Positions 3,951 to 62,778 of a stretch of 64,000 nt of DNA are shown one piece after another. This stretch comes from Gnetum montanum. Its lineage: Eukaryota > Plantae > Gnetophyta. A program made the translations under genes and the position numbers. How positions within the stretch are numbered: the first letter of the stretch is position 1; the number at the start of each line of letters is the position of its first letter. The notes below the pieces were generated by a model. That model had not been told where the DNA came from, ran no database searches, and was given only the letters and a program-made list of their open reading frames with translations. Location of the stretch: NCBI GenBank assembly GCA_015680685.1, contig MNCI01002192.1:127237-191236 (forward strand), in the 5' to 3' direction.

Positions 3951-4097
3951 CCTATGCCAAATCATATAGATCACAATCATCCATCCATAATTCAGCTGAA
4001 TTTTATGGACAGAACTAGTAATATCTAGATCATTAAGTATTGATTGCAGGTCACTATCTTCTTACTTAGACTAGTAGTAGCTTTATCAAGTATGATT

Positions 4098-6596: not shown

Positions 6597-8292
6597 TGTA
6601 GTGACCGAAAATGTTGATGGTTGGAATGGAATACTAAGAGGTTCATAGGTACATAGCTTTAACACTGAGTTCACATGAGGGCTTGTTGGAGGTGGAGACA
6701 GGCTACCTAGAAGGTCTTGTTGATTGAGTAAGGACTTATGAAATGCAATTCCAAATAGTGCTAAGTGTTTGCACAATGTTCATGGTGTTAGCGAGGGTGA
6801 GTGTAGTCAAGGTTTTTAGTGCAAAAAAAGGGTGTTAATGCATGGTAGTGTATGAAAATAGCCAAAAATGCAAGTAAAATTGATAAAAAATGTGTAGGGA
6901 GAGAGTGAGAGAGAAAGTGGCACCACCCTAAATAAGGTTGAGCATAGTTAACTTCAAAAGGGATGAGAAGGTACGCGGTGTATAGCAGGCATAGTAGATA
7001 GCATAGTTATAATCTTGGGGTATCTCGTTGCAAAGAATAACATTCTTCCATGGTTTCTATGCTTGCTAGGTTGGCCACCGTAATGTGTAGTGGATTGCGA
7101 TGGTCTATGTTGGGCTACAATGGTGTGTGAATGCCTTGCCTTCTCAAAATGCACTTCAAAAATGCTAATGTTGTTTCAATTTTTTCAGTTAGATTCCAAT
7201 TTTTGCCAACCCCTAAAACATTGAGGGCTAGGGTATTTATACTTCTAGGGTTCCCATGGAATGTGGATCGGTTGCCACGTGGTAGTAGATAGTTGGGACT
7301 ACGCTACACCTAACTATGCTCTTCACTAAAGTAAGTGGTGTTATGCTCTAGTGTGCTTCAATGGATTTTTCTAGACTACCAAACTATGACTATGCTACCA
7401 ACTGCATGTTCTTGACTCAAACAGGATCACAATGTACCTGAAAAAATGTGAAAAAATGCAACTTTGGAAACTACACTTTGGGACTATGCTATCCACTACC
7501 TTGAGTGGGGTTGAGCATAGTTACAATTTGGGGATAAAAGGGAGTATAAAAAAGATGCATTTTTGCTAACTACACTTGTTGGAAGTGTGTTGGAGCTAAG
7601 CTGAGTGCTAGTGCTACATTGTGGAGGCCATTGGATGCTTTTCTAGTTGACTATGCTTGACTATGCTCTAGACTAGGGGAGAGTGTAGTTCAACACTTTG
7701 AAAAATTTTGTAGAACATGGCTGTATTTTGACTATGCTCTCCATGAAAGGCTAACTATGCTCCCAACTAGGGTCAAGAATAGTCCCAACACTCGAAATTT
7801 TTTTGCAAAGTCTAGCTTCAAGTTGACTATGCCTAACTACGCTCCAGTTTGGTGGAGAGCATGATCTTAACACTAAGAAAATTTCTGTCAAACTAGGTCT
7901 TCCATGCTAACTATGCTTGACTATGCTCCAAGGTAGTGGAGAGCATAGTCTCAAAACTTAGAGAAATTTGTAGCTATTGGCTTGACATTTAGAAAAATTT
8001 GCAAAATTGGCCTTTGGTATTGAATACACTCTCTATTGAGCTAACTACGCTCTAATGTAGTGGAGAGGGTAGTTCCAACACTTAGAAAATTTTTGCAGCT
8101 TCTTGCTTCATGATGACACTGAGGAAAAATTGTAAAAAATTAGTCATCGAAGCTAAATACACTCTATACTGGCTGACTATGCTTTAGGATAGTGGAGAGC
8201 ATAGTCCTAGCACTTAGAAAAATTTTACTTCATGTTGACACTTAGATGAATTTGCAGTTAAGAAGCTATCGCCCAAATTTGATGGTTTTTCA
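6597..8292 (-). repeat. 3' LTR of E1
   Basis: Minus strand TGAAAAACC...CGGTCACTACA. Colinear with 22800-24506. Many GACTATGCTC/GAGCATAGTC and TTAGAAAAATTT motifs. TATA (plus strand GTATTTATA) at ~7232-7240. Confidence 0.95.
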
Positions 8293-8294
8293 TT

Positions 8295-8305
8295 GGCCCC
8301 TCTTT
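8295..8305 (-). promoter_or_regulatory. Polypurine tract of E1
   Basis: Minus strand AAAGAGGGGCC immediately before the 3' LTR start. Confidence 0.85.
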
Positions 8306-9244
8306 GTTGAAGTGTGGAGGAGTGGCCTAAGAGATGTTGACAAAGAACTGCAAAACACCATAGCATGCTTTGCACCAACATTGATCTTTCATGCATAATC
8401 AGATGTTGGTGTGCTATGCTCAAGAGTATTGTGGATAGTGGTATGTTGGGAGTAAAATGATGTAGGTGATGTGCTAGGGGATAACAAGGGAGATGAAATG
8501 TAAAAAGGGTATCATGATGTAGGATGTGGAGTCAACATGGTTGATGATGATCATGGCACTAGAGTGGCTTACCTCTAAGAAACATTAACCTCTTGTTGAA
8601 GTGCTCATGAGAGAGTTAAGGTGGATTCAGGGCTTAACTGGTTGTGAAATTGCAACTCTATTAATTTTCTTGGGAACATGTTTTCCCTCCTTTTCTCTTT
8701 TTGTTTTTTCTTTTTTCTTTTTCAATTTTGTTTTAATTTTTGCTATGGGATGAACCTTCTTTGGGTTTTACACTTTGTTAAATGCTAACCACGAGATGCT
8801 TTCCATCAAGTGGACTACGCACCACCAAATGGGCTTTGATTTAATGCTTGCAAAATGTAGGATAGGTGTTTCTCCTTAGGATGACTTATGTTACATCTGC
8901 TTGGGCTTTGACCAGCCAACAAAGGCTCCCCATGGGACAACTTATGTTATGTCCACCTTGGGTCCTACGTTTTGGCTTGCAAAGAGTGCCATGTGGTTAT
9001 AGGGGCTTGTAGTCTTGACTATGCTAGGGAATGCAAAAGTATGGAGGCATAGGGATGAGTGTAGGCCATAACAAGGTAATAGGGATGTGCACTCTTAAGA
9101 GGCTTAACTAGTCCTATCATGCACATTAGAGCAATGTGGAAACTTGCTGCTGTGATGAGATTCACCTTTGCATAACCACCTCGGCACTTTATCCAATAGA
9201 CACAACTTTGAGAGGAAAAGAAAACCATAAAACATGCAATGCAA

Positions 9245-9660
9245 ATAAAATGTCAAGGGTGATGATGCTGTGAGTTCCAAAGGTTGAACTGATGACATGT
9301 GTGAAAAAAATTAGCAAAATGCCTAAGGGTGATAATGTTGCAAATGCTCCAAAGGCTACACTAGTTGTAGATGTTCAAAAAGCCAAGAAAGTGTCTAAAT
9401 ACGATGATGATATGAATGCTCCAAAGGTTGGGGTGATGGCAAGTGCTCAAGAAAACTAGCAAAATGGTAGGGGGCCATAATGTTGTGAGTGCTCCCAAGG
9501 CTATACCAATGGCAAGAGCTTGAAAAATCAAGAAAATGATGGGGGGCCATAATGTTGCAAGTGCTTCAAAGGCTAGAGTGGTGACAAGAGCTTGAAAAAT
9601 CAGCAAAATGGTAGGGGTCCATGATGCTGCAAGTGCTCTAAAGGCTGAGTTGATGGCTAG
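9245..9660. repeat. ~72-bp tandem repeat array in E1 3' UTR
   Basis: AAAATG(G/A)T(A/G)GGGG..AT(A/G)ATG.TG recurs at 9461, 9533 and 9605, with more degenerate units upstream. Confidence 0.8.
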
Positions 9661-9849
9661 TGTTCCATTTTGGGATTGTTGTATCCCCATCCACATGGTG
9701 CAAAAAAGTTGGGGAGGGGGGGTGGGGGCGGTGACGGGGGGTAAGGGGGAGGGGGGAGGGGACAGGGAGTTAAAATTATTCTCACTTGCTTACTCATGAA
9801 ACTATACATGACTAATGGCAAACCTAGTTTAAGGTCTTGGTAGACTGTG

Positions 9850-10190
9850 ATGTGCTAGTTTATCATCATAGTAGACTGGTATGCTAGTTTATCATTGTAG
9901 CAAATGAGTTGTGCTAGTTTACTATCCTAGCAGATGAGTTGTCCCAGTTTATAGTCATAGTGTATTGCTGTGCTAGTTTATCGATGTAGCAGATGAGCTA
10001 TGATAGTTTATAGTCATAATGGTTTACCGTGCTAGTTTAATGTTGTAGCACACATGCTGTTGTGTTAGTTTGGCATTGTGTCCCAAGCATAAATGTTGTG
10101 CTAGTTTAAGCGTCATAGTGGAAAAATGTGGTGAATGCTAGTTTAATGTCATAGCGAATGATTTGTGCTAGTTTATATTCATAGCAGACT
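9850..10190. repeat. ~29-30-bp tandem array with TGCTAGTTTA core in E1 3' UTR
   Basis: TGCTAGTTTA recurs at ~9853, 9882, 9912, 9971, 10030, 10099, 10136 and 10166. Confidence 0.85.
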
Positions 10191-10254
10191 TGTGCTTACC
10201 TTGCTTTGTTGAGATGTAGCACTACATGCTAGGCATAGTAGGGCTTCAAGTACG

Positions 10255-11330
10255 AATGGTTCACTAGATTGGAAAACTCATTGCCATCTTGATTAGCAAG
10301 CTTAAATGCTCCATTATTATAGGCCTTAGTGACCAAGAAAGGCCCTTCCCAGTTGGTTAAAAATTTATCTGTGGGTTCACGAACAGTGTTGAGGACTAGG
10401 TATCCTTTCTTGATTGGGTGCTAATGTTGGTTGTGATGATGCTTTTGCCATTGCTTTTCTTGGTAACATTCGATGTGATCAAGCATTTGCATGTGATCCT
10501 CTATTAAGTTGAGGTCTACGGTCCTCAACTCATTGTTCTGAGCTTCATCAATGAAGTTTGAGAGAATCATCCAAAGTGATGGAACCCACAATTCAAGGGG
10601 AAAAATTGCTTAAAATCCATAGAAAAGACTATAAGGAATCTTACTTGTTGCTATTTAGCATGTTGTCCAGTAGCCTCAGAGTGCATAGACTAATTGCTCA
10701 TGCCATTATCATTTGCTATTTCTTAGCATCTTCTTTAGAAGGTTGATGATGAATTTGCTAGTGGCCTCCACTTGGCCATTTGCCTGAGGGTAGTACAATG
10801 ATAAGAAGGAATGTTTAATACCAAAGTACTCACAAAAGGCTTTAGTTTTAGCACCACTAAATTATGGCCTATTGTCTATTACTATGATCATGGGTAAGAC
10901 AAAATGGGTCACTATGTTATCAAGCATGAGTTTGCAAACTTGTTGCGATGTTAGCTTTATAAGGGAAATAGCCTCAACCCACTTGGTAAAATATTCAATT
11001 GTAGTTGTGATGAAGCTATGCCCTATGGAGGACTTAGGTGTTATAGGTCCAATGATGTCCAAGCCCCAATGTTAGAACAACCATGTAATCTACATTGTAT
11101 GCAGTTTAGTTGGTGGCACGTGCATTAAGTTGCCATGTTGTTGACACATGTTACACATTTTGGCCTCAACGACACAATTGCACTTCATGTAAGGCCAATA
11201 ATAGCCCAAGCATATGATCTTCATTACCATTGCCCTAGGTGCTATGTGACCTTTTCATAGTCCCTTATAGACTTGCTCAATGATTGTTTGTGCTTTGGTA
11301 TCACTTACGTAGGTTAGCAGTATGCCATCA
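10255..11330 (-). pseudogene. Integrase of E1
   Basis: WGLDIIGPITP..HSFI.TTIEYFTKWVEAI and IVIDN. C-terminal KFLTNWEGPFLV (GPY/F) motif. Multiple stops. Confidence 0.9.
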
Positions 11331-11559
11331 TAGGATCTATAACATGACGTGCTATCACCCATGATGATGTACTACCATGAACATTTTCACACTGCATCCT
11401 TTTGAGTGGTAGTTAACACCCTATAGAAGGTACACCTTAATGTCATCGTACCATTCTCTTGTATGGGTCATGCTAACTATGGCTATGGATGCAATGTTAA
11501 TTATTTGCATGATAGGCACAATGCAATCTGCCACTAAGGTGACAATGCATGGAACATAT

Positions 11560-11950
11560 TAGGTACAATGCTTAAGGCTAATATTGCTAATGTGTCGGCT
11601 ACTACATTTTCATTTTGGGGAATGTATTGGACATCAATAGTTGCAAAGTGTTTGAGCAAGTGCTTTGCTAAATCACAACAAGGTTGTAAATGTTGGGCCT
11701 TGCAAGTATAAATCATTTTCACCTAATTGATCACTAATTGTGAGTCACCTCAGATTGCTAGGTGTTGGATCCCTAAGTCACATGCAACAATGATACCTCA
11801 AAGGAGACCTTTGTACTCTACCATATTGTTAGTGCAGGGAAATGCAAAATGATATGCGAAGGGTTGGATCTTCCTAGAGGAAAATATGATAATGGTAGTG
11901 GTGCTACCCCCTTAAGAGCTTGAAACTCTATCAAAATGCAAGAGTGCCTC
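11560..11950 (-). pseudogene. Additional 'archaeal-type' RNase H (aRH) of E1
   Basis: LHFD..; FPCTNNMVEYKGLL; GDSQLVIN; YIPQNENVVADTLA. Lies between RH and INT, diagnostic of the Tat clade (Ogre/Retand-type order). Confidence 0.9.
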
Positions 11951-11999
11951 ATAGTTTTTGGGCACTTGATTAACACTCCTAATGTGCTCATTTTGGAAT

Positions 12000-13124
12000 T
12001 TTGGATCTATAGTTGCTTGATTGTTAAATAAAGAAACCATAAGCTATGTGGCTATAGCTTGACCTTTTATCGAGGCATGTGCAATGTAATGTAGGTCAAA
12101 ATCCACCATTATTTCTTTCCATCATGCAATACAACTACTTTTGTAGATGTTCATTGTGATTACTAGGAGTACATTATTTTTAGAAATGATGTTGACTTGA
12201 CTACAGAAAAGGAAATGCCTCCACTTCTTGAGTGAGAAGACTAAGGTGAAGCAGTACTTTTCCACATCATTGTATTTTGCTTCATGGGATTCTAATGCAT
12301 GGCTTAAGTAGTAAACTAGGATCTCTATACCATCATCTCACTTTTGGTAATGCAGAGAAGTGATGAATGTGTTAGAAGTGGCAAGGTAGATGTAAAAAGG
12401 TTTATCTCCTTGTGGAGGGTGAACTATAGGAAGTTGCACCAGCACTTGCTTAAGGTTGTTAAATGCTTGTTGGCATTGAGTTGTCCACTCAAAGTGGGCT
12501 TCTTTCTTGAGCAAATGTTGCATTGGCTATAACTTATTAGTTAACCATGTGATAAACCTACATATCAACTACAATCTACCTTGTAACCCTCCTAGCTCCT
12601 TAAGGTTGACTAGGGATGCTAAATTGGTTATGGCCTTAACCTTGTCATGGTCTATGCATATTCGTGTTTTGGATACTACAAAATGAGCATCTGGCCCATT
12701 CTGATTATGAAAATGTGCTTCTTAGGATTTAGCCTAAGATTGTATTTTAAGAAATGTTTAAGTACTATGTCTAGATCATTTGCATGATTATGAGCCACTT
12801 TGGACTTAACTGCAATGTTATTGATGTAGTCATTGAGCAAGCTTAACATGTAATCACTGAAGATATATGTCATTGCACATTGATATGTTGCTCCTGCATT
12901 CTTGAGTCTAAAGGGCATCATGGTATATCAAAATGTATCCTAGGTGGTCATGAAGGTTGTGCTAAGTTGGTACTCAAGGTTGATCCTAATCTAGTTGTAG
13001 CTCGAGAACCCATCCATGAAGGATAACAAGGCATGACTTTCCATGGTATTGATTAGTTGATTAATACTAGGCAAAGGGAAGTCATCTTAAATGGTTGCCT
13101 TGTTCAAGTCTCAGAAGTCTACAC
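12000..13124 (-). pseudogene. RT and RNase H of E1 (RT N-terminus deleted)
   Basis: VDF.DLNKA..DDFPLP, LLSFMDGFS.YN, MPFRLKNAGATYQ, FEWTTQCQQAF.. Sequence upstream of the 'CVDF' motif is missing. Confidence 0.9.
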
Positions 13125-13129
13125 CTAGG

Positions 13130-16100
13130 ATTGGCAAACATGGACGAGAGGGAGCGAGCACTAGGGCACCTACCCTAAGCACATGTGAAAGAGAGGAGGC
13201 CATTAGTGTCTACCAAGTACCCCAACTATTCTTCCTTTATCTTTTGCACTTCAAGGATTTTGGGAATGTGGACATGAGAATGTGCCCTAGCATGGTAGGG
13301 GGCCACCATTGCAACATGTTGTTTCAATAGTGATTGTGATAGGGAGGGGCATGCATGGCAGGGAGTGTTTCTTGGTTGTCATTTTATTTTTTGGGGCATG
13401 TTGGGGTTTTTCTTTCAACCTTGAGAGATGGGTTCATGGGTTGCATAGGTTGGGAAACTCATTTGATTGAGGTTCAACAATGTAGCAATAGGGGGGATTT
13501 TGGTGTTGACTAGGGCCAAGGAGTGGCCTGCCATAAGGGTGAGGGGCATGGTAGGGGTTTTTCTTACATTTCTTTATTTTCTTTTAAAAGAAAAAATTTC
13601 TATTTTTGGGGAATGAACAAGGGCAAGGCAAGTGTAAGTTTTCTAGCTTTGGTAGCAGCTAAAACATAGTTGGCTACGGGGTGGATGACATAGCAGGGAT
13701 TTACCCTACAATTTTATTTTTGTTGTTGTTGTTTTTTTTTATTTTTTCAAAATTTTGAGAGCTAGACTGAGGGCTAGGTGTGTCACATGTCACAAGGCCA
13801 TGGGGCTTCTTGTTTCTTGTGGCTTGGCTACAAGGGCTATGGGGATGATTTCACCCCATAGCGTGGCCATGGGGCTTCAAGGGCCACAAGGGCATTCAAC
13901 ACTGGGGCATGTTTTCTATGTTGTTGTTTTTTTCATTTTTGAAATAGATGTTTTTCTATGGAGTGATGATTGAGTAAGGAAACGTTAGGGCTTAGTGGAA
14001 ATGTTGGGTGTAGTCACATAACAGTGCGTGAGGATTGCACACAGTAGGTGTAGTAGGCATGGAGCACGCAAGGCATGGTGGGAGTGGTGGCATGGAGAGG
14101 GCAGTGGGATAGCACACGATGTTGTTGTAGGACACGTTGTGCAGAGAGAACTAGGGCATCAACCAAGACCTTACTCTTTATGGGCCATAGCCAAGACTAT
14201 GCTCGCCATACTTTGGAGGAGCAGTTGACACCAAGTGTTTGACAAAATGACATCTATCCAAAAGTTAGTTTTTTCAAAACTACACTCTGTAGGGAGCATG
14301 GTCACGAGTTAGAAAAATTTGCAATTTGACTATGCTCTCCATGTTTTGGAGTGTAGTTGGGGTACTACCAAAATTAGAAAAAATTTTATCCTCTTCCTAG
14401 ACTATGCTCTCCACTGAGCAGTCTAGAGTTAGAAACATTTTATGACTTTCCAAACTACACTGTCCAGAGTTTGAAATTTTTTTTAAATTGAGCATAATGT
14501 GAAACTTGTGAAATGTAATAATGCTAATCATGAAAATTGCAACAATGCTAAACTTGTGAAAACATGCTGATGCTAAACTTGTGAAACCTATGAAATGGAA
14601 TGCTAATCCTATGCAAACGTGTTGTATCATAGTGAGTACTAGGCATGTCAAATAAGTTGGTTGATGTCCTATACTAGGCAGTGTGGTTTTGACTAAGGGC
14701 TCATGAGTTTTTGGGGTACCTACTATAGTAGTTTACTGTGATCATGTGGTTACACTTAATGATGGATTCAACTAGTGCCATCACTAAGATGTTGCTAGCT
14801 AGGGCTAATCAAGACATCTTGAGGTTCATTTTAGATGAGCCTACTACTAGCAATGATGGCATGAGTGACTTAGGTAGAGGCCATAGGAGTGATAGGTGCC
14901 TATCTAGGATATGACGCATGCTAAGGTTCAATTTCTATAATAAGAGCAACATCCTCTTCATCATGCTATGGGTGCGCACACTATTTCAGAAGCCACCTAG
15001 AACTGTGTATTGTGCTGGAGGGTAAGTGCTTTTATCGCTTTCACAATTTGTCTTTTGCTACTTGCTCATGCTATCTTACTAATAGCTCATGCTTAATGCC
15101 AAATTCAGAGTTGATGAGGAGGGCCTACATGATGAGGCAAATGCTCTAGCCTTGACCTGCACTCCCTTGGTCGTGTTCACCTCTAGCCCAAACATTCAAG
15201 AAGTTATGGTTGAGTAGGTGGGATTTGATCTAAAGGTTTACCTTGCTTGCTACTTGAGGACATATGATCAATGTAGGATCCACAACTAGTTAGATAAGGA
15301 GTGGGCTACTGGTGTGATTAACACCAAGGAGATGCTTGTAGCACCATGCCCATCTCATACCCCATTTTTTTCATGTATGCATCTAAGTTTTGGCTTATGT
15401 GCTTGCTCATGTGTGCTTGTTAGTTTTCCTTTTGCATGATGCTAATGTCATTTTGCCTTGGTTGTAGTGGTAGTTTCTTTAGGTAAGGTGATAGTGGTTA
15501 TCACAAGCTACACAAAGGTTACCCTCATCATGAAATATGGTGATGTGGAGGGTGCATAACACTAGTTGTGCCACAAGGCCTTAGAGGAACTAATAGCTAG
15601 GCTCACACATGCAAGGTTGATGCACCTATTTTTGGCCCTTAGCTTAAGTATTCTGGTGGCCAAAATGGTCACCATTATTAACTCCTTCAGTAGTGACATT
15701 AGCCAGTTCGTCACTCGAGTGCATAGTGTGAGGGTAGTGCTTGAGCTTAGCAAGGCCTTCTTTGTTGATTTCTTTGGCCTTTCCATTGATGACCCATTGA
15801 TTGTTGATAAGGCCAATAGGGAGATGGATAGCAGAGGGGAGATTAAGGACTAGTTGGAGGCCATCCGATCTCATAAGGGCATACAAATCAAAGATGTGGT
15901 TATGCCTAAGGTATAGGAGCTATACCCTCTTTTCTATGCTTGTGCCTTCCTAAAGTTGTTCTTCCATGGAAAGATATTTGGGGTAGAGTAGGCATAAGTG
16001 ATGAAAGAGGTGTTGTTGGGGGGCACAAGATTCAACTAGATTGCCTATATTGCTAGGGGCTTACATGTAGAGATCTCTAGGATATGGTTTAATATCCAAG

Positions 16101-18210
16101 TGAGTTCCCATGTCCACTTCATGTTCCTTGTAGGGTATCTACGAAGGTTCATGGAGCTTCTAATTGTACATGATGGTGGGCGTTGGATGGTGTAGGATCA
16201 TGAATAGTTGTCCAAAGCATGGATCAAGCACCTATTTAATGACCACATAGGCATAGAACTTCCCAAAGGAGATCGATGAGTCATTATCCATAATGACTAA
16301 AGGTGTCATGGGGTAGTGATACTACTCACATGATAATATAGGTGAGGGTCCCTTGATTGGCACCAGGGACATGAACAAGGTGGATCATTATATTGCAGAG
16401 ATGGTGGGATTATCTAAGGTAGAGATTAAGAGGCCATGTCCCATGGAGGAGACTATCCCCTAGGTCAAAAGACTAAGTAGCAAGTAGATTTGTATCAAGT
16501 TTCAAAGCTTTCACACAGAGATGGTAGGTTAGTATGCATAACTTGTTAGATGAATTTATTACACTAATGTATGTTCATATTTTTTTTATGTTTTTTTAAG
16601 GTATTCTATTAACTAGTACTAATGTTGTAATCATATGTGTTGATTGTAGAGATTGGAGAAAGGACTGCTAGAGCAATGGCCAAACTAGTAACAGAAGATG
16701 CACCTCCTCAAGTTGAGGAGGGGAAGGCTCATGGAGATGAGGTACTTGAGGTAGCAAAGATCCTCTAACAGTTGGAGGAGGGGTTGCTACACCTCAATGG
16801 GAGTAATTTTAATTACCTATTTGATGGTGTATAGCTGGGTGACCCCCTTGCACTCACACCCAAGGGCTTACTAGGTAAGTACTTTGTGTTGTCATTTGTT
16901 AGTTCCTTTTTCTCTAGTCTCTTTAGCTATTCAGTTATATGCTGATGACATCGCTGTGTTACAGCCTCAGATGTTCCTACTAGTGGTCCCACATCTATCT
17001 ATTGCATGGATCCATGGGTAGACATGCCTAATAAATTTTCCTTCATGGAAGGCATCATGGAGGACATGGTGGATCATTTGCAATAGTCAGATTCTAAGCT
17101 TAGTATGTTTGCTATGTTGCTTTGCTTTATGTTATTTTACTAATGAATGCTTAGTGGCTAAGATTAATCACTTGTTGTGTGGCAATAACTTCTAAGCTTC
17201 GATGGGATCCGAGCAAGGTAATGAAGGTAGATGCCCTCCCTAACCTTCCTCATGAGGTGGATCAAGTGTCTTGTCACATGAATGAGATAGCAAGAAAGTG
17301 CTACTTTGTTGTGCAAAGGAATTTTGGGTTTGTAGGGGCATAAACTAGCACTTGTGGAAATGTGTGCACGAGATGCATGAGAGAGTGATTGGCTAGGATA
17401 CAAAGATTAGAGACCTTTAATCTCGATATGACTTTCTAGTGGCTAGGTCATAGGGAGATAACACTTGAAGAACCTATGAGATAGAATATGCTTAATATTT
17501 GTCAGCTCTTAAAGGCAAGAATTAGGCTACCTAGGAGGTGATAGAGCAATAGTTGTAGATGGACTTACTCATCCAAAAAAATCAAGACTAGAAGAATTAT
17601 AGCACTAAGGTGTACCAGTGGTGGCTGACTGAAAAGAATCACAAGAACCAATACAAGCATGAGTGTGATACATACCTTCAATAGTACAAGGAGAAGTCTA
17701 TTGAACACTATTACCTTGAGATGTTTCTTAAGGAAATTGGCAAGAGACAAGCTTATGAGTTGTTCACGCAGCATATAGTGGTGAGTGGCTCTCCTGAGCA
17801 ACAAATTGTCACATCTTTGGGAGGGGCTTCCTCTGCTACCTTTTCCATGGCACCATCATGGACAAAGGTAAGACCCTTGTAGGGATTGACTTTGGCCAAG
17901 AGGACTAGTCATAGCTTTCTGAGGCCAAGATCCTTCGATGCTTGGAGGATGGCCTTGAAAAGTTACCGCCAGAAGACATTGATGCAAGACCCTCCCAGGT
18001 TAGTTGTTAATTTTTTATGCTTTTTCATTTTTTTGGTTAGCTTGTGTTGTACAAATTTACTTACCAATTGCTTGTTTTTGTTGTGGTTGTGGTAGTAGGT
18101 ATTAGAAGATGTTACAAGCCCCAGTGATGTGGTGGGGGAAGAAGAGCCTCCACCTCCACTTAGTGCCACCAGTTGAGCATGACCTGATGTAGCCCTATTG
18201 CTTGACATTT
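13130..18210 (+). pseudogene. Antisense multi-exon accessory gene inside the PR-RT spacer of E1 (PMD-like segment, acidic region, coiled coil)
   Basis: Exon translations align with the minus-strand exons at 58604-62635 (ARANQDILRF vs PRANQGILRF; TRVHSVRVVL vs THVHSVQVIL; MDLLIQKNQD vs MDLLAQKNQD). GT-AG introns at ~15022-15108, 15375-15467, 16528-16649, 16875-16964 and 17999-18098. Confidence 0.8.
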
Positions 18211-18399
18211 TTGCTATTTTTTTTGTGTTTTGGTGCTCATGATACTCATGCTATGTACTATTATTCATGTGATATCTAATGCATATGTTTCGCTATATGT
18301 GTGATGTGCAATGTGCAATGTGCAAACTTTATTTTTTATGTTTTATGTTTGCTATGTGCTTACTATGGTATGCTAAGTTAAGTCTATGTGATGATGGTG

Positions 18400-18665
18400 C
18401 AACTAGGCCATTGCGAGCCTAATGCTAGTTTAAGGCCATTTTGGGCCATGATGATAGTTTTAGGCCATTTCAGGCTATGTATACTACTAGTTTAAGGCCA
18501 TTTTAGGCTATAGTGATGATTAAGAGTGGTAGTTTTAGGCCATTTTGGGCCATATATTGCTAGTTTTAGGCCTTTTCAAGCCACAAGGTGAGGATCAATG
18601 GTGGTAGTTTAAGGCCATTTTGATCCATGGGTTGCTAGTTTAGGGCCATGGTGGGCCACGCAGTG
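18400..18665. repeat. Tandem array (TAGTTTT/AAGGCCATTTT core) at the PR-proximal end of the E1 spacer
   Basis: About 7 degenerate units of GCTAGTTT(T/A)AGGCCATTTT. Homologous to 58295-58445 (reverse complement). Confidence 0.85.
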
Positions 18666-18959
18666 CTATTTCTCTTTTTGGGATTTTAGCTTTTCTAATT
18701 TTTGTGCATTTTTATGTTTTTCATGTGTAAGCTAATGATTGTTAAATGGTAAACTAAATGAGCGAATGTGTAAACTAAACAAAATGCATAAACAAATAAA
18801 ATGAATGCATAAACAAAGTAGAACGATGTGTAATGTGAACAATCTAGCTAAAAGTAAATGTGTAAACAAATGTAATGTATGCAAAATGTGAAATGCATGG
18901 ATAAATGTAAAAGCAAAGGGCAAGTAGGCACATAGTGTGTGTTAGACTAAGGAGATTCC

Positions 18960-21900
18960 TTAGTCACATAGTTGCTTCCTAACTTGGTGTGGGTTAGGAG
19001 GTGCATAGGGCCTAGAATGTACTATGTGATATTCCCCTTGACCTTCATTTGCAATGGTGAAGAGAAACTCAGCCCACAAAGCATCCTGTGGGAGGTCATT
19101 GGCTTCTTCTACTTGTTCGGGTGGGTTAGCCTCGTGCATTTCATCCTCATTTTTTGCTGTGGATGCATAGGGAACTCCACCTTTGACCCTTACTTCATGT
19201 CTATGTTGTTAATGGCTAGAGGGGTTGCATTGTCACCATGAATAATAACCTTGCCACCTTCATATGAAAGGTGGATCTTTTGGTGGATGGGGGAGGAGAT
19301 GGTCTATGATTGGGCCAACCAAGGCTTACCCAATATTAAGTTAAAGCTTAGCATTTCCTCTACAATGATAAACTTAGGAGTAGTGGGGAATTGTTTGCCT
19401 ACCACAAAGGCTATTGTGAGAGTTCCCCTAATGATGACATGTGACCTATTGAAGGATTTTAGGCATGTGGTTTTTATTGGTTAGATTTGCTCAACAAGGC
19501 TTAGTTTTTCAATGATGGTGTATGGGATGACATTTGTTGCTACCTTGTTGTTAATGTGCACCCTACAAATTTTGCATTACTTGATACGTATTGTGATAAA
19601 CATGGATGTTGTGATGACTTGACCCTTCTCAAGATTGATCTTAATTGCATCATCATGGAATGATAAGGGTGTTGAGCTTGATTCCTATGGTGCAGGAGGC
19701 AACATCATAACATGGATGGAATGCTCATCTACTGGGATGTCCTTCATGATAAGAATGGAGGTCAACATCTAGACTAGTGCCTCATGGTGGGTAGAGAAGG
19801 TCATAATCAAGTCATATAGGCTCAACATTGTATTTTTCTGCTTTAGGGCTTGATTGACCTAGGTTAATGCATCTAGAAAGTCATTGTCAGTGTCTACCAT
19901 TTTGTAGGCATTGACCTCCTCCATGTGATCTAAGAAATGGATCTTTCATAAAGGAGATGTGGACTTGGCTTTTTTAGTATGTTTGGGGGCCTCAGTGCTT
20001 GATTGCACCTTGTTGATGGTGGCCTTTTTAGTTGTTTTGGGCATGGGGATTGCAGAAAGAGGGACTGGTTTGGGTAGACCTAGCACCTTTTGCTCATGAT
20101 GTTGTCTAATCATCGTATTAGCGAGATGCTCATTAGGCCTCTCGGGCTACCACCTAAATGGTCTATTGGTATGGCCAGTAGGATTGGCTTTTGGATGAGA
20201 AAGGAATAATGCGTCACCCACCACTAGACTTTAGGTAGGTGCAGGGTCAACATGTTGTAGCACCCTAATGACAAAGGATGGCTGAACTATTGCTACCATG
20301 ACATGCTAGGGAACCCTGACCATGAAGGGTGTTGTGGGTGCTCGAGGTGGTGCTCTAATGTTGAAAGGGAGCCTCAAGCTTGTGGAGGCTAAGGGGATCT
20401 CTACATTACCAGAGGGCACATAAACCATGAATGGTCATTGCACCGACTCTTGGTTGTCATCAACACTAATGTACCTTCCATCATCTATGTTTAGAGGATC
20501 CTTATATACCCTCATGGATTGGTTTTGAGGCCTCACTAGGTTGGTAGCATTGAGCACCAACTCATCTCTATCAATCATCCATTATAGATAATCCTACAGG
20601 GCCATGCAAAATTTAGTGTTGTTACTGGGCAATTGGTGTTAGTGACAAAACCTATCTAGCTTAAAGTGCTTTGACATCGAAGGCCCATTTAGTGCTATAA
20701 ACGTAGGGTTCTTGAGGAGCTCGCAGTATCTATCATGTCTCTTGTGAGTGTCCTTAGAAATTTTCTTGTACTAGATGTGTCTAGCCTTAAGCAGTTGGTC
20801 TAGGAGTTTCAAAGGTTTAAGGGGTAGCGAGGTATACTTTGAGTAATCCTTGCACTCAAAGATGGGCCTTAGAGTTACTTGCATTTTTTCCACTGATGAT
20901 GTAGACTAGTTCATTGTTGTGCTATAGTTGGTAGTTTTATTGTTGGTTGGGGCCTTGGGTGGCCTGGTTGTTGGCTTTGGATTAGTTTTTTTTGGCCTTG
21001 TTGGTCATAGTTTCCATAGTTGTAGCTTGATTTCCCTTATTTTTTTCCTTTTTATCATGTAACTTCTTATAGGCCATGTAGGCTGGGTCCTTGCTGGCTT
21101 CTGTCATGTCCTATATACTTTTAGTTTGGGCATAAGATTGGCTTAGGGATTGTGAGGTTAAGTAGTATAAAGTCATTAACTACATCCTTGAAGATGGCTA
21201 GAAGGTGCATTTCTGCTATAGGCTCATGGATTTCATTTAGTGATGTGATCTAATGTTGGATAAATTTCTACATATGCTCTAGATGTCCCTACTTGATTTG
21301 CATGAGCTAGTCAAGGATGGTTTTTGGCTTCAAGTTGTACTTGAAGCACATGATGAACTGACTCAATAGATCTTACAAAGAGGTTGAGGCCCTAAGTAGC
21401 ACTTGGTACTAGTCAAGTGTCTTGTCAATGAGTGACATGGTGAAGAAATGTATGATGGCATGTAGTCATGCCTATAGTAATAAGCACTTAGACTAAAAGG
21501 TCACCAAGTGTGCATTAGGATTCCCTTCATCATTGTACTTGGTGAAGTAAGGAAGAAAGATCCTCATTGGGAGAGTCTATTGTGGAATAACAAGACTTAT
21601 GTGATCATCCTGGTAAAAGTCCACCATGTGAACCATTTTAGAGGAGGTGGCCTTGCTTGATCTCGTTTGTTAAGGTTTGGATTAGCTAGAATGGTTGATC
21701 TAAGCCTTGGAATGTAACAATGGGTTGCCTTAGTTGTGCTGCTTGTTATGCTAGTTGCATGGTCCATGACTTGGCTGAAGGTTGTGTGGCAATACAAGAT
21801 ACTTTCTGTGTTGGTTTTGTCATAGGCTAACTCTAGAAACTATAGAATCATCAAAATCATGCTCGGAACGAGCCTCAAAATCATCTTTCTTCCCATGTAG

Positions 21901-22300
21901 AATCTCCTTATAGTCTGCTCCTAGTTCATGCTCACTTGTTTAGATGAGTTGGGCTAGGATCCACTAGTAGGGTTTGGTAAGTGGGATGAAGTCAATAGAG
22001 GAGGGGATGTACTCTCTTTTGTTTCGATTGATGAGCTCATAAGCTTTCTTCACTTCCATATCAAAGTGATCTACGAATAGGGCCACTTGGAGCTTTACAC
22101 ATATGAAGTTGTACTGTTCATCATTCAGTGTGATATACTTGGATTTTTGGTTATGCAACCTTAGGGATTGCCTTGGTTCTACCATGGTGGGACTGGGAAG
22201 GTGGTCAATCCTATTTTCTTGTTGAGTAGGAAGGGTAGCAAATGTGCTTTTAATGGATGTTAAAGGTTGCTCAAAATTCATGGTGCTAATTGAAAGTTGC
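18960..22300 (-). pseudogene. gag-protease of E1
   Basis: FTKYNDEGNPNAHLVTF; FCH*HQLP (Zn-finger-like); SLYDLIMT..HHEALV; IHQKIHLSYEGGKVIIHGD. Colinear with 49-54 kb and 55-58 kb. Confidence 0.9.
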
Positions 22301-22460
22301 AAAAAAAAAAAAAAAAGCTAACTCTAGAAACTATAGGAAAACAACCAAGTTTGGAAATTGTAGAAAAATGGCTAAGTTTGAAAGCTGCAGAAAATGTCTA
22401 ACTTTGGAGAAAATGGCTAAGTTTGAAGATTGCAAAAAAATGGCTATGTTTGGAGACTAT
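22300..22460. repeat. ~27-28-bp tandem repeats in E1 5' leader
   Basis: AGAAAATGGCTAAGTTTG-type units repeated about 5 times. Confidence 0.7.
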
Positions 22461-22775
22461 GTTCTTTACATTGAGAGCTAACTACGCTCTCTACACTAAG
22501 AACCAACTACACTCTCTACTGAGAGCCAAAAATTTAGCTAAGTGCAGGAATGGATGCTCTGAGGTTGCTACATGGGATTCCAAGGGAACTTATGATGGGG
22601 TCTAGTCTACACCTATTGATTTTTAGATAACATCTATGTTGGTCTAAGATTTAGCTACTTCCACATGTGGTAGGTCTATAGGGGTGTTGGGTCTACGCTA
22701 GCCCAAAGCTAGCAACGATGATGTAGAGAGCACACGAGACAACCCCCAATGGAGTCTAAGAGAGAAAAAGGTCTT

Positions 22776-22794
22776 GACCCTCCTTCTAGCGCAA
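22776..22794 (-). promoter_or_regulatory. Primer-binding site complementary to tRNA-Asn 3' end
   Basis: Plus strand GACCCTCCTTCTAGCGCAA matches the plant tRNA-Asn(GTT) 3' end (..CCCTCCTTCTAGCGCCA). Adjacent to the 5' LTR. Confidence 0.85.
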
Positions 22795-22799
22795 GAAAA

Positions 22800-24506
22800 T
22801 ATAGTGACCAAAAATTTAAATGGTTAGAATGGAACATCGAGAGGTTTTTGGATGCATAGCTTTAACCCTAAGTCCATGTGATTACTTGCTAGATGCAGAG
22901 ATAGGGTGCCCATAATGGTCTTGTTGATTGAATAGGGACTTACAAAATGCAATGCTAAATGGTGCTAAGTGTTTGCATGGTGTTCACGGTGTTGGTAGGG
23001 GTGAGCATAGTCAAGGTCTCCAATGGAAAATGAGGGTTTCAACTTGCAGCAATATGTGAAAATAGCTAAAAATGCGAGTAAAGTGGCAAAATACAAGTAA
23101 AAATGCTAAAGAATGTGTAGAGAGAGAGCGAGAGAGAAGGTGACACCACCCCAAACATGGTTGAGCATAGTTAACTTTAGAAGGGGTGAGAAGGTATGTG
23201 ATGTACAACAAGCATAGTGGGTAGCATAGTCATAATCTTGGGGTGTCTAACTACAAATATTGACATTCTACTGTGGTGTCTGTGCCTACTAGGTTGGCCC
23301 CTATGGTGATCTACGATGTCCTACACTAGGTTACGGTGGTGTGCAAATGACTTGCCATGCTAAAATGCACTTCAAGAATTCTAATCTTGCTTCGATTTTG
23401 CTAATCTGCTTCCAATTTTTGCCAACCCCTAAAACATTAAGGGCTAGGGTATTTATAGTCCTAGGGTTCTTATGGAATGTAGATCAATTGGTAAATGGTA
23501 GTGGACAGTTGGGACTACGCTACATCAAACTATGCTCTCCACTAAAGTAAGTAGTTTTATGCTCTGGTGTGCTCCAATGGACTCTACAAGACTACTAGAA
23601 TATGAATATGCTACCAACTACATATTTGTGAGCTAAATAAGACCACAATGTGCTTGAAAAAATATGAAAAAATGCAACTTTGGAGACTACACTCTAGGAC
23701 TATGCTATCCACTATCTTGAGTGGGTCGAGTGTAGTTACAATTTCAGGATAAAAGGGAGTACAACAAAGATGAATTTTTGCTAACTATGCTTGCTAGAGG
23801 TGTGTTTGAGCTAACCTGAGTGCTAGTGCTATGTTGTGGAGGCCATTGGGTTGTTCTGGCTACTTATGCTTGACTACACTCTCGACTGGGGGAGAGTGTA
23901 GTCCAACACTTAGAAAAATTTTGCAGAACATGGATATGTGCTAACTATGCTCTCCATGGAAGAATGACTATGCTTCTAATTGGGCTCAAGCATAGTCCTA
24001 GCAGTTGGAAAATTTTTGCAAAATCTGGCTTCTAGTTAACTACGCTTGACTATGCTTTAGTTTGGTGGAGAGCATAGTCTCAACAGTTAGAAAATTTCTG
24101 CCAAACTAGGTTTTCCATATTAACTATGCTTAACTACTCTCTAGGGGTAGTGGAGAGCATAGTCTCAACACTTGGAAAAATCTACAGCTGCTAGCTTGAC
24201 ACATAGAAAAATTTGCAAACTAGCCTTTAGTGTTTAACTACGCTCTCTATTGAGTTGACTATGCTCTAATATAGTGGTGAGGGTAGTCCCAACACTTAGA
24301 AAATTTTTGCAACTTCTTGTTTCATGATGACACTTAGGAAAAATTGCAAAAAGTTAGTCTTTGGACCTAACTACGCTACCTACTAGCTAACTATGCTCTG
24401 AGGTAGTGGAGAACATAGTCTTAGAACTTAGAAAAATTTTGCCTCGTGTTGACACTTAGATGAATTTGCAATTGAGAAGCTATCACCCAAATTTGGTGGT
24501 GTTTCA
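22800..24506 (-). repeat. 5' LTR of E1
   Basis: Minus strand starts TGAAACACCACC. Colinear with 6597-8292 but visibly diverged, indicating an old insertion. Confidence 0.95.
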
Positions 24507-24511
24507 ATGAG

Positions 24512-44052: not shown

Positions 44053-44057
44053 GTAAG

Positions 44058-54929: not shown

Positions 54930-57900
54930 ATACATAAGAACTCAAAGACAAACGTAGCTTCGAGTTTGCTTACTATAATAGGAGGGAATTTATTCCCACT
55001 CCTGGAATTTCCATTTCTTTGATGCAAACACATCAGTGGATCATAGATTAGCTGACATGGTTGACTAGGCCTAGGAAGCCACGAGACATGACGTCTCACT
55101 ATGACGAGATGTTCCAAGATGGGAAAGAGGAACTGTATTCCTAGTCTAAGGGTGGGGGTCAAACCAACCCTGCCACCATCCCTTCCACCCCATCTTTCTG
55201 GTCGAACCCGCTCTCTACTACCACTCCCTTTATGCTCACTTCCACGTCATCGCAACCCGTAGTATCATCAACAATAGGTAGCCATGCCATGCCATCAACA
55301 TATCAACATGCCTATTCCCCCGTCACATTCTCAGCCACTATCCCTCTGCAAATTGTTTCCCAATCCATTCTTGTTTCGCACCATGCACCAATCACAGCTG
55401 CATGCAGCTCCTGCATCCATTCTAGTGTCTACACCTATCCAACTACCAATAGCAGGCCCAGTCCTACCCACATGGTGGACCCCATTCACTTCTCCTCTTG
55501 TTTCGCAACCATCGCAAATGTCCCACTATGCTTGCCACCAAACGTACCAGGTCCTGTAAATGGTACAACCAAGTGTGGGACTATGGTTTATCCCACCCAC
55601 CACACAAATGGCCTACCCCATAACCAGTGGCTATTGCTCCAACAGCACCACTTACCGGGTGGTGGACAACACAAGCAGCACCTTTCATAGGGGCCACCCC
55701 AACGATACTACCTATGGGTCACATCATTGCCCCTACCACTCCACAAATGGGAGCTACCTCTATAGCTCCCTAACCATTCACATTGTCCCTGGGTCTGGAT
55801 CAAGCATTCTAGCTTATCTAAACCCTTACTAAGGAAATCAAACACCTCAAGGCTGTCGGTTCTGACATGGTACAAGTCATGGATTTCTACCATGATGATC
55901 CCATCAGCTTGGCAGTCCCCATGTTAACACTACCCCCTAGGATGCCACTTCCTCATTTTACAAAGTACAATGGGAAGGGTGATCCCAACGCCCATCCTGT
56001 TACATTTAGATCTGAGTCCCTTCTTTTGTAGCAATGGCTGCATACAATCATTCGTGTCTTTGCTATGTCTTTGATGGGAAAAGCTCTGGACTGGTATCGC
56101 GTGCTCCCATGCTCCTCCATCTCAATCCTAGACGAGCTGCTAACCCAATTCATAATTCGTTTGAGATATAAATTGATACCAGAGGTTACGCTGGATTAGT
56201 TAATGAGCGTTAAGCAAGATCCACTCGAACTAGTCCAAAAATTCATACAATGGTGGAGCGCTACCCTTAACAAGATCCATGAGCCCATTGTGGAGGCCCA
56301 TCTACTAGCCATCTTTAAGGGTGTAGTGAACAACTTCATTAAGTCCAAACTATACTATCTCGCTCCACGGACTCTTAGTCAGGATTTTGCCCAGACCAAG
56401 AGCATACAATACGCGGCTGAGGCAAGCAAAGACCCGACCTACATTGCATATAAGAACACCTTTGTGATGAAGGATAAAGACAAGGGTAAGGCTGCAACAA
56501 CCACAGTGGCTACGATGGTAATTAAAGCCAAACCCAAAAACAATAATAAGAAGAAGGTGGCCACACCAGTAACTAACCCTGCACTAGCACCAGGCAATGT
56601 AGCCTAACCTTCGACATCGGCACCTGAAGCATCCACACCACCCTAACCTAACTTTGAGCATAAATATTGCTCTAAGTACACCCTGCTACCCATCAAGCCT
56701 TCAGAATTTCTGAAGCAATTACTGGGGACAGGATATATCCAACACAAGCGGATGTTAGAGGAGGTAGCCAAAAAATATCAACGGTACTATGAACTCCTTA
56801 GGAAGCCATCCTTGGCTTTGCCAAATGAGCCGCTAGTTCTTAAGAATTTCAGGCTGGAGTGGTTCTATTACTACCATAAATAGTGTGGTCATGATATGAA
56901 TTACTTCCTGGCATTAAAGGATGACATCCAAAGAATGATTGATCAAGGGAAACTAGTTCTAGATGAAAGTAACCTAGTGTGTCTTGAAAATTAATCTCTG
57001 CATGTCTACATGGATCCTCTTAACACCAACAACGCCGGTTACATTATCAACACTATCTGTGTTGATAGTAACCCAAAGCCACCCCAGTAGTCATTTGTGG
57101 TTCATGTGCCTTAGCGTAGCGTACCAACACCACTGACGGCTAAGAAAAACTCATAGTAACCATTTTTCCTAAGAATCCCTCCCCGAACATCCACCCCTGC
57201 ACCACCTGTAAGAAAAACTACACCACCACCGACTGCGTTAACATTGTAAGCACCATTCATCATCAAGGGGCCAAGCCACTCAACTGTCCCTGCCCTACAT
57301 AAGATAGCACTGTAGCCTTCTCATCCAAAGAAATGAGAAGAGTGCTTAACAGGTGAGGCAAGCCTATGCTCTCGCCCTCTGCATCTATGTTCTCATTGCC
57401 AAAGGATAACGTTGCTACACACACATGGTCATCGCCACCTTGCCGGAAAGGGTCTAACCCCAGATATAAAATTATCCCTCAGGAAATTCGTCTCCTGGGA
57501 CAAATGGAAGAGGAGAAAGGTAGTAAACAGGAAGGTGGCCCAGACCTCTTAAGCGCTCTTACTCAAGTCAAGCAGGCTCTAAAACAAAAAAAAACACAAT
57601 GTTGAGCCTATATGACCTAATTATGACTTCCACTGCACACCGTGAGGCTTTGGTTCACATGTTAATGGCATGGGTCATGGTGAAAGGCACCATCCACATT
57701 GACTTTGTGGCAGGGGACCAGTTCCCCATGAATGCAACATTTATCATGGTGGAAGAGATGTCTAAATTTAACTTGATCTTGGGGAGGTCATGGTTAGCAC
57801 AACTTAGGGCCGTCTGCTCACCCATACATCAGGAGATCCATCTACCCTATGCAGGCAGGGAGGTGGTGATCCATGGCGACAAGGTAGCAACGCAAGCAAT

Positions 57901-58145
57901 AAATAACGTAGATATGGAGCAAGGCTTGGAGGTCATAACCTCTAAGAATGAGGTTCCCGTCTTTGTAGATACTAACTGTTTAGCGAAAGAACCGGCCCAA
58001 CACGTCGGCTCAGAAAATGAAAATGTGTGGGCCAAGTTGCCTTTCAAGCGAAGGACAACGATGTAAATGAGTATCATAGCAAAGTGTCTTGACCCTATGT
58101 CTCACCAAATCCATGTTGGGTTAGAAAGCAGTTACGCATAGCATA
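54930..58145 (+). pseudogene. gag-protease of copy D
   Basis: FTKYNGKGDPNAHP; ORF 56203-56607; YYH..CGHD; ORF 57599-58066 (FNLILGRSWL..IHQEIHLPY). Confidence 0.9.
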
Positions 58146-58294
58146 GTAACCCCACTGCTTCCTGCCCAGTTAACATCCATTGTACACTTATTAATTATTC
58201 ACTTCCCATACATCCATCTACACTAGGTTGCCTGACTAAATCCTTTAAACCATTCGTACATTCCTTTTTTTTTAACATCATTACCGTGTCCCAA

Positions 58295-61600: not shown

Positions 61601-62635
61601 TTTGGGCATTGAATAGATCCTTCTCCCTGCCCACTCCTAATTGCTCCATCGGTCATGAATCTCAAAATACCCTGATTTGCCCTAGGCAACAAGGTTTCTA
61701 TTATTACAGCTGCTACCTCCTCTGAGAAGTGTGACCAAATGATCACACTAAAGTGCTGGAGAAGAAATTGTAGGAAGTCTTGTGCACCTTCCCTGAACCA
61801 AACCGCCTACTACCCCACACGTGCATGGGGCAGAGGAACATTGGCCACTAGTTTGCTCAGGCAGCATAGGACTGCTACAATTTCTAGGACGATCAAAATT
61901 AGCCTTAGCATCACCTTGCACAACACAATGACAAATGTTAACATCATGTTCGAGCGAAGTTAACTTGTAGTGTAGCAAGATTGGCGGTTGGTGGTTGGAA
62001 AATAGCATAGCATAGTTCTCCCCTTGAATGTAGCATAGTAAAAACATAAAGGAAATAGCATAGTAGAATTAACATAGCGTAGTGATAGAAAATTTAATGC
62101 AAATTTTAAATAAGAAAAGATTCAATACGCTGCAGCTGTTTCAAAAAATCTTCTATCTGACAAAATGATTTGCATTATGCTGCAATAGACACATGTTATA
62201 CTATCAACTCATGCACATGGCCAAACCCTCCTAAGGGTTGTACGCTATGCTATTTGCATGCTAAGTTGTGAAAATCACCTAAGCCTCTGTGGTCGGGTAG
62301 CCGTAGCAATGGCGGTTTGGGCAACACTACATGCAACCTTAGCGTAATGCTCGTACACCTGTTGTGGCTGAATTAGCACTAGTGGCGGTGTAATGGCCAA
62401 AATAACAAAAAAAGAAATGACAGAAAATGTAGATTTCCAAATGAAAACAGGAGCAGAAATAGAAAGTAGAAGCAAAAATGGTAGCACATGAAAAAGGAGA
62501 GTAACGTAGTAGCTTATCGGCCAATGGAGTCTCCTCCCACACTACGACACATGCCTATGACAGACACCCCAGGGTGTCCTTTACCTCGTCTACCTTGGCA
62601 AGCGCAAGGGGTTTGTGTTCTCTTTTGGGTACCAT
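58604..62635 (-). pseudogene. Antisense multi-exon accessory gene inside the PR-RT spacer of copy D (PMD-like)
   Basis: Candidate ATG at 62635 and TAA at 58604. GT-AG introns at 61384-61465, 61000-61106, 59820-59960 and 58700-58782. ORF pieces 61543-61746, 60674-60973, 60270-60476 (GAHYNWAKNLCKGL), 59452-59829 and 59200-59451. Confidence 0.82.
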
Positions 62636-62770: not shown

Positions 62771-62778
62771 TATTTATA
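62771..62778 (-). promoter_or_regulatory. TATA box of the antisense gene
   Basis: Minus strand GCTATAAATAGGGG, ~135 bp upstream of the candidate ATG. Confidence 0.65.

Follow-up and report, generated by a model that had tools for sequence, protein, structure and literature searches.

A likely spliced accessory gene running counter to gag-pol in two diverged Tat-type retrotransposons of Gnetum montanum

The window analysed here, 64,000 nucleotides of the gnetophyte Gnetum montanum (contig MNCI01002192.1 of assembly GCA_015680685.1, positions 127,237 to 191,236 of the forward strand; coordinates below count from its first letter), holds two diverged Tat-type Ty3/gypsy long terminal repeat (LTR) retrotransposons, E1 and E2, that have a protein-coding gene in common. 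In both elements this gene, here called the cassette, lies between protease (PR) and reverse transcriptase (RT) and antisense to pol, on the plus strand in E1 and on the minus strand in E2. We consider it likely, at a probability of roughly 70%, that the cassette is an accessory gene which the two elements inherited and which would have a promoter of its own, be spliced and run counter to gag-pol. An earlier note, made from the letters of this DNA alone, had described an antisense cassette at one and the same PR-RT position in the two elements; coordinates, strands and alignments all agree with it.

The antisense cassette and its inheritance

E1 reads on the minus strand in the order gag, PR, a 5.8-kb gap, RT, RNase H (RH), an additional archaeal-type RNase H (aRH) and integrase (INT), and E2 on the plus strand has gag-PR up to 58149, a 5.1-kb gap and then pol from about 63283 to the end of the window. 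In tblastx, the two gaps align in colinear blocks, all of them antisense to pol: E1 14675-14860 with E2 61809-61624, 15173-15307 with 61311-61177, 15485-15769 with 60982-60698, 15926-16237 with 60551-60240, and 17400-17855 with 59391-58936. The earlier note had taken 13130-18210 as the E1 copy. The first aligned block starts at 14675, and the 5′ part of the E1 cassette (13130..14670, plus strand) is not demonstrably homologous to E2; in the test of a first-exon match, 29 of 2000 shuffles scored as high, and other places in the window scored higher. The peptides and splice contexts that the note quoted were recovered in place.

The encoded protein is predicted to begin with a NIF-like domain and a helical middle domain; an acidic linker leads from these to a conserved, charged C-terminal block, and the last exon is short and acidic. 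The NIF-like domain, newly recognised in this analysis, is encoded by an E2 exon at 61466..61914 (minus strand) that resembles the NIF/FCP1-like, HAD-type phosphatases and matches Pfam PF03031 with 26.8 and 29.2 bits (E 8.6e-7; gathering cut-off 21.8); its E1 homologue (14678..15021, plus) has 39% identity to it. The middle exon (E1 15468..16527, plus; E2 59961..60999, minus, frameshifted and with stops) codes for a conserved domain of no recognised family. The conserved C-terminal block follows, at 17400..17855 in E1, where it contains MDLLIQKNQD, and together with the acidic linker at 58783..59819 in E2 (minus), where the corresponding peptide is MDLLAQKNQD. The acidic last exon of E2 ends at about 58604 (minus). 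Upstream, 136 nt before the first cassette ATG of E2 (62635), a TATAAATA box at 62771..62778 (minus) is a candidate promoter, its function being suggested by sequence and position. At the other end, tandem repeats behind the E1 cassette (18404..18665, plus) are homologous to those at 58260-58452 in E2.

Both copies are dead. Their 412 cassette codons contain 20 stops in E1 and 6 in E2, and 18 of these 26 stops are TAG, an excess expected from the decay of methylated cytosines. The substitution pattern between the two copies is nevertheless that of a coding sequence. Identity by codon position is 0.56, 0.70 and 0.38 (412 aligned codons), and over 390 codons the proportion of synonymous differences (pS) is 0.775, which is saturated, against a non-synonymous proportion (pN) of 0.36, the largest contrast among the six frames. 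PR (pS 0.73, pN 0.22) and RT (0.80 and 0.13) show the same synonymous saturation. As in PR and RT, synonymous sites are saturated and non-synonymous sites are not, which argues that selection acted after the E1 and E2 lineages had split; the codon pattern thus points to purifying selection on the antisense frame. In E2, this frame has 6 stops, compared with 12-30 in the other five frames. Amino-acid identity between E1 and E2 is 36-48% in the cassette, 39-63% in the gag blocks, 58% in PR and 76% in RT, and the divergence of the cassette therefore lies within the range of the gag blocks. The proteins align, as had been reported; the DNA, which had been called very divergent, is still alignable by blastn (55-59% over 1.9 kb and 0.5 kb).

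The phylogenetic position of the two elements was assessed with an RT tree of 43 rows (40 chosen by hand from 120 matches, E1, E2 and one outgroup). Here, E1 and E2 are sisters (support 100/99) on a long branch within a group of Taxus and Cryptomeria proteins (96/98) and stand apart from a Vitis/Vaccinium/Fagus group, in a tree without a labelled Ogre reference. None of the 120 RT matches is more than 58% identical to the E2 query. In a DNA sequencing run (X1) searched at 80% likeness, 57,590 contigs fell on 57400-64000, covering 30 of 30 bins, with 3% running on unlike. At single cassette sites 107-118 contigs were found (at most 128 were counted per site), and more than 100 distinct contigs at such sites indicate a multi-copy family. 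Coverage was deeper in bins on conserved exons (3,368-37,592) than in those of the upstream spacer (659-2,869 at 62041-62703), although depth in X1 does not translate into copy number and the assembly may itself derive from X1. A sequencing run of a second organism contains 0.52 of the words. The earlier view of a heritable, selected part of the element, and not a chance capture, is thus upheld by purifying selection, gag-like divergence, sister RTs and many related contigs, and we regard it as very probable that the cassette is an inherited, selected gene.

Predicted introns, product and expression

Four introns are predicted in both cassettes, all bounded by GT..AG. Intron 1 (phase 2) lies at 15022-15108 in E1 (plus, 87 nt) and 61465-61384 in E2 (minus, 82 nt), intron 2 (phase 1) at 15375-15467 (plus, 93 nt) and 61106-61000 (minus, 107 nt), intron 3 (phase 1) at 16528-16649 (plus, 122 nt) and 59960-59820 (minus, 141 nt), and intron 4 (phase 0), which precedes the short acidic last exon, at 17999-18098 (plus, 100 nt) and 58782-58700 (minus, 83 nt). 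The eight paired gaps accordingly measure 82-141 nt, have equal phases in E1 and E2 and contain 2-7 stops when read through. Of the four coincident positions claimed earlier, those of introns 1, 2 and 4 hold in position and phase once the colinear tblastx blocks and the phases (2, 1, 1, 0 in both) are mapped; intron 3 agrees in phase, and its position match is approximate. An additional E1 intron that had been proposed at 16875..16964 (plus, 90 nt) is likewise predicted here, since it is T-rich and has GTAAGT..CAG ends; no E2 counterpart was seen. Another T-rich stretch of E1 (17095-17200) might represent one more additional intron, whose donor has decayed. Intron 3 of E2 contains a microsatellite-like TGCTA/TAGCA motif (59854-59913), which recurs in a solo LTR (52076-52757) and attracts many unrelated reads.

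Each junction was ranked, by the similarity of the E1 and E2 peptides, among all GT/AG pairs within 40 nt. The predicted junctions came first for intron 1 (1/35 and 1/12) and intron 2 (1/36 and 1/34), and first and second for intron 4 (1/30 and 2/20). When spliced peptides were compared with an unspliced control, a clear gain was obtained only for intron 1 (score 46 vs 25). Exons and introns are not equally conserved: 14 of 15 exon pieces scored above all 200 shuffles, whereas none of the four intron interiors did so (their scores were reached by 47-159 of 200 shuffles), in line with the earlier remark that the interiors lack similarity. The exon pieces in this comparison come from the tblastx-aligned blocks, the non-aligning acidic linker exons being left out. 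Introns 1, 2 and 4 of E2 have lengths that are not multiples of three, so only splicing holds the frame that matches E1. Finally, the pattern of a donor, a T-rich stretch and AG occurs 13 and 6 times on the cassette strand, compared with 1 and 0 times on the pol strand. We hold it to be quite probable that the gene is spliced as mapped.

Beyond the NIF-like exon, homologue searches returned little. The middle domain (model with a predicted local distance difference test score, pLDDT, of 33) had no match in Pfam, NCBIfam, PDB sequences or 1.84 billion representative proteins (profile search, E<=0.001), and a word-seeded search confined to longer proteins yielded 0 of 245 candidates; the NIF alignment, again restricted to longer proteins, yielded 0 of 512. 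None of four cassette pieces matched NCBIfam, and the C-terminal block had no match in the libraries searched, which did not include large protein collections. The best PDB match, SMAD3 (E 0.064), and the best of a second PDB search (E 0.42) were dismissed as chance. No cassette match was found in 85 stretches of viral contigs or in 583 metagenome contigs, and 80 metagenome loci found by their RT (50-67% identical, mostly short) had no cassette piece; a single 28.9-bit match in one of the 80 was taken as chance. By eye the middle domain may be reminiscent of the plant mobile domain (PMD); neither PMD (PF10536) nor Transposase_32 (PF20167) profiles matched it, with decayed queries. Transposase_28 (PF04195) did not match the cassette pieces either, in a scan that did not extend to the E1 3′ region at 8300-10300.

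With a gap of 5-6 kb in front of RT, the layout also makes one ask by what route Pol is produced. Both gag-PR frames stop at a homologous place, just after a common GTTAG (58120 in E2, 18983 in E1), and in E2 a site resembling an acceptor (63271) lies ahead of the ATG at 63283. Five RNA runs (X10-X14) were examined, whose reads stem from relatives, are mostly less than 90% alike and only partly aligned, and reach a depth of about 0-8 per direction over the cassette. RNA-only mapping placed 885, 218, 53 and 474 reads from X10 to X13; at this low depth, no PR-to-RT joint was among the joints listed, and the one joint shown links two tandem repeats. A mapping of X10, X13 and X14 together with a DNA run had 271 joint rows beyond those listed. 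Seven RNA starts at 63006 in X10 were rejected as a promoter signal, since they lie within a tandem repeat and may be duplicates. Because coverage is thin and no spliced read was found, we infer splicing and antisense transcription from the DNA only.

Proposed explanation and its alternatives

LTR elements are copied from RNA of gag-pol sense, in which introns of the opposite strand are no splice substrates. We propose that the common ancestor of E1 and E2 acquired the gene once, introns included, probably into an Ogre-like PR-RT spacer. Its introns would persist since the genomic RNA carries their reverse complement, which the spliceosome would not see, and reverse transcription would copy them intact. 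An antisense position relative to the genomic RNA would account for the retention of the introns, the drift of their interiors and the donor, T-rich and AG patterns on the cassette strand. The cassette would be transcribed from its own promoter, opposite to gag-pol, and then spliced. The protein would most likely be a nuclear regulator that aids expression of the element or its escape from silencing, and its NIF domain would bind phosphoproteins and not hydrolyse them; by analogy, we give such a nuclear regulatory role about even chances. Pol may become accessible when the entire gap is spliced out in pol sense, the route taken by Ogre, or it may have a transcript of its own; we lean slightly to the second. 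A bolder version, which we regard as rather doubtful, would see in E1 and E2 an undescribed, probably gymnosperm, Tat lineage with two opposed transcription units, in which a multi-intron gene with a captured domain like that of RNA polymerase tail phosphatases serves as an anti-silencing or self-activating factor, introns are kept by strand inversion, and Pol has an internal promoter of its own that stands back to back with that of the gene.

Several observations weigh against our explanation. The full cassette comparison rests on two copies, and the cassette frame of E1, with its 20 stops, is barely below two reverse frames (21 each). Among the junctions, those of intron 3 rank only 8/48 and 33/88 because its flanks are poorly conserved, and splicing changes the score little for intron 2 (46 vs 44) and lowers it for intron 4 (23 vs 32). 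The thresholds for the strand pattern were set after the introns had been seen, overlapping donors were counted and intron 3 of E2 was missed, and control regions lean the same way (2:2, 3:0 and 2:0). In the RNA runs, no distinct antisense signal of the cassette is evident; in X10, a library of unknown polarity, one mate direction prevails over gag and over most bins of the cassette, and the opposite one over RT. The lack of a spliced read at any predicted intron, among the joints listed for X10-X13, counts weakly in the same direction. On the pol strand, the candidate donor at 58120 and the acceptor at 63271 give no in-frame join in E2. As for the product, the Pfam NIF match is confined to E2, the E1 homologue alone giving none. 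NIF/FCP1-like enzymes carry a catalytic DxDx(T/V) motif, which was seen in neither E2 nor E1, though both are decayed and functional copies may differ. A model of the NIF region (pLDDT 39) revealed no phosphatase fold, with no fold match at E<=0.001 and a best Z of 4.0. The function is proposed by analogy alone, with maize Grande gene23 as the model.

What could the cassette be instead? One alternative is a passenger: a gene of the host, or a DNA transposon, would have entered the ancestral element a single time and been copied without benefit, its signal of selection stemming from an earlier life. A multi-intron structure and a NIF domain do look host-derived, both copies are dead and no spliced RNA was seen. 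However, saturation of synonymous but not of non-synonymous sites, equal to that of PR and RT, dates selection after the split of the lineages, and a neutral insert of 4-5 kb would have decayed like the intron interiors. Nor do terminal inverted repeats bracket the cassette (among the 25 longest of 52 and of 69 pairs), and no transposase family matched in the pieces scanned; a nested cut-and-paste DNA transposon was rejected on these grounds, having no convincing arms at both ends. We therefore consider a passenger highly improbable. Two independent captures of paralogous host or transposon genes at one permissive PR-RT spacer, with the conservation reflecting the history of the donors, are very unlikely as well. 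The Ogre-like PR-RT spacer is indeed non-coding (PMC6317226), and no alignment was obtained between the 5′ parts of the cassettes, but the same orientation, the same tandem repeat downstream, the gag-like divergence and the sister RTs all speak for a common origin. Likewise, no donor of the middle domain turned up among the 1.84 billion representatives or in the word-seeded searches, a weak argument for broken queries.

The two remaining alternatives concern parts of the gene. An inherited gene whose NIF domain is, in functional copies, an active HAD phosphatase, with the RNA polymerase II tail or else a silencing factor as its target, is suggested by the Pfam score above the cut-off. A plant gypsy lineage offers a precedent, the AlkB demethylase that it captured in orchids being active (PMC9289625); host PMD proteins, moreover, are reported to silence transposons together with the phosphatase PP7L (PMC7156037). 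The Pfam match nevertheless spans only profile positions 25-91 of 160, which omits the catalytic start, and the motif is unseen in both copies, decayed as they are. We judge an active phosphatase to be unlikely. Least plausible of all, and close to negligible, is the idea that the T-rich gaps are no introns but fast-evolving spacers between separate short open reading frames (ORFs), or low-complexity indels. The missing spliced reads, the poor ranks of intron 3 and the small gain of introns 2 and 4 over the unspliced control would fit; eight gaps of 82-141 nt with GT..AG ends, equal phases in both elements and in-frame stops would not, and neither would the three E2 introns whose removal alone keeps the frame in register with E1. 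An inherited, spliced accessory gene thus remains the reading that we prefer.

Relation to known Tat elements and genomic setting

E1 shows the features of the Tat clade, namely the order PR-RT-RH-INT with an extra archaeal RNase H, LTRs, a polypurine tract and a target-site duplication (TSD) of 5 bp. Ogre elements are defined by an aRH between RH and INT (PMC6317226, Neumann et al. 2019; PMC4408406, Ustyantsev et al. 2015), and E1 resembles them in this aRH position, its large size and the 5-bp TSD, and E1 and E2 alike in the stop after gag-PR with a gap before pol and in their tandem repeats. The Ogre gap, however, averages 274 bp and is spliced as a pol-sense intron (PMC6317226; PMC4408406), whereas that of E1 and E2 spans 5-6 kb and carries an antisense gene with predicted introns of its own. 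Ogre and Retand were, moreover, described from angiosperms (PMC6317226; PMC4408406), while the RTs of E1 and E2 group with Taxus and Cryptomeria proteins. The gymnosperm lineages TatII and TatIII differ as well: TatII has its aRH between PR and RT and no extra ORF, and TatIII has it after INT, along with an antisense PMD ORF at the 3′ end (PMC4408406), whereas the aRH of E1 follows RH and precedes INT and the cassette sits between PR and RT. A Taxus protein (P0068) with an aRH downstream of RT was the best match to the E1 aRH among twelve matches listed (88 bits vs 44-65), so this arrangement may not be confined to angiosperms.

Antisense coding regions that are family-wide and under selection are known from the Tat elements Retand, Grande, RIRE2 and TatIII (PMC7264820, PMC11963269, PMC4408406); gene23 of maize Grande, an accessory gene in antisense, has a promoter of its own, and its product is nuclear (PMC7264820). 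Those ORFs are located after pol and ahead of the 3′ LTR and contain Transposase_28 or PMD (PMC7264820, PMC11963269, PMC4408406), while the gene of E1 and E2 sits in the gap separating PR from RT, shows 4-5 predicted introns as well as a NIF-like domain, and matched neither Transposase_28 nor PMD. The orchid element Gypsy_Pa_2799 is similarly a Tat-type element with a host-like enzyme domain fixed in an extra gene, but its AlkB domain, which is intact, shows activity in vitro, and a single ORF encodes its gag-pol (PMC9289625); in E1 and E2 the gene splits PR from RT, and its domain is NIF-like. Compared with the NIF/FCP1-like HAD phosphatases themselves, the product is fused to unrecognised domains and borne by a retrotransposon. 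Our literature search, which mostly did not cover subscription journals and did not extend to supplements (including the element tables of PMC6317226), turned up no account of a gene with several introns or a NIF domain in the PR-RT interval, and the available text of PMC5408684 held no precedent for the cassette. The position, intron content and domain are new among Tat extra genes.

Reverse transcription normally strips introns. Plant LTR elements are generally without them, with Ogre and EVADE as named exceptions, and engineered retrotransposition reporters use the opposite arrangement (2025 review, PMC12786077). If our explanation is correct, a selected gene of 4-5 introns inside an LTR element would exemplify in nature how introns are retained through antisense orientation. 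Vicient and Casacuberta have called for a search for antisense and spliced transcripts (PMC7264820), and the NIF-like domain would offer a concrete handle on the role of antisense accessory genes.

The window as a whole is a nest of decayed plant LTR retrotransposons (CpG observed/expected 0.13-0.39 in four regions measured). E1 is a full-length, dead element of 17.9 kb (6597..24506, minus), recognised by its LTR pair, TSD, polypurine tract and domains, and flanked by the 5-bp TSD ATGAG (6592-6596 and 24507-24511). Its 5′ LTR (22800..24506, minus) adjoins a stretch like a primer-binding site (about 22778-22799), a polypurine tract (about 8293-8306) precedes the 3′ LTR (6597..8292, minus), and the two LTRs are 81% identical over 1684 aligned sites (Kimura two-parameter distance 0.22). 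The broken gag-protease (18960..21700, minus) was identified by homology to E2 and to a third element, E3; its frame stops at 18962-18960, and PR (19438-19178, minus) was assigned via its E2 homologue. Pol (10400..13122, minus) comprises, in sequence, an RT without its N-terminal part, RNase H, aRH and integrase (profiles RVT_1, RT_RNaseH_2, RVT_3 and rve), and the RT edge next to the cassette lies at 13122-12949 (minus). RT homology between E1 and E2 ends abruptly at 13124, and E1 lacks both the RT N-terminus and a spacer of the E2 type (about 62700-63810). Since the N-terminal part of RT is missing right at 13124, a deletion there probably took the promoter region of the cassette too.

E2, a dead element as well, runs from about 54450 to the end of the window (plus), with none of its LTRs inside the window. 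Its broken gag-protease (55060..58149, plus) ends in stops at 58144-58149, with PR at 57674-57934 (plus; a weak RVP_2 match, E 0.09), and the start of pol (63283..64000, plus) opens with the ATG, homology to RT setting in at about 63500 and reaching the end of the window. E3 (window 49920-54450; gag 49939-51176, PR 53594-54282) belongs to the same lineage as E1 and E2. It ends behind PR and abuts the 5′ leader of E2 without an LTR, probably via a deletion, and holds no cassette piece. A solo LTR of 1.78 kb (51814-53593, TG..CA, TSD ATAAC), with ends related to the E1 LTR, sits between its gag and PR. On the minus strand, a further Ty3/gypsy element occupies 39800-45700 (gag 45178-45681, protease 44567-44989, RT 40244-40570, RNase H 39809-40120); its protease and RT are about 4 kb apart, a distance that includes a run of N at 40897-41360. 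E1 is flanked by a direct repeat of about 750 bp (4096-4828 and 27738-28497, 75% identical), possibly the LTRs of an older element that received E1. Four tandem arrays with a common short TAGTTT-containing unit lie behind the E1 integrase (9823-10230), behind both cassettes (18404-18665 and 58260-58452) and between the E2 cassette and pol (62916-63133).

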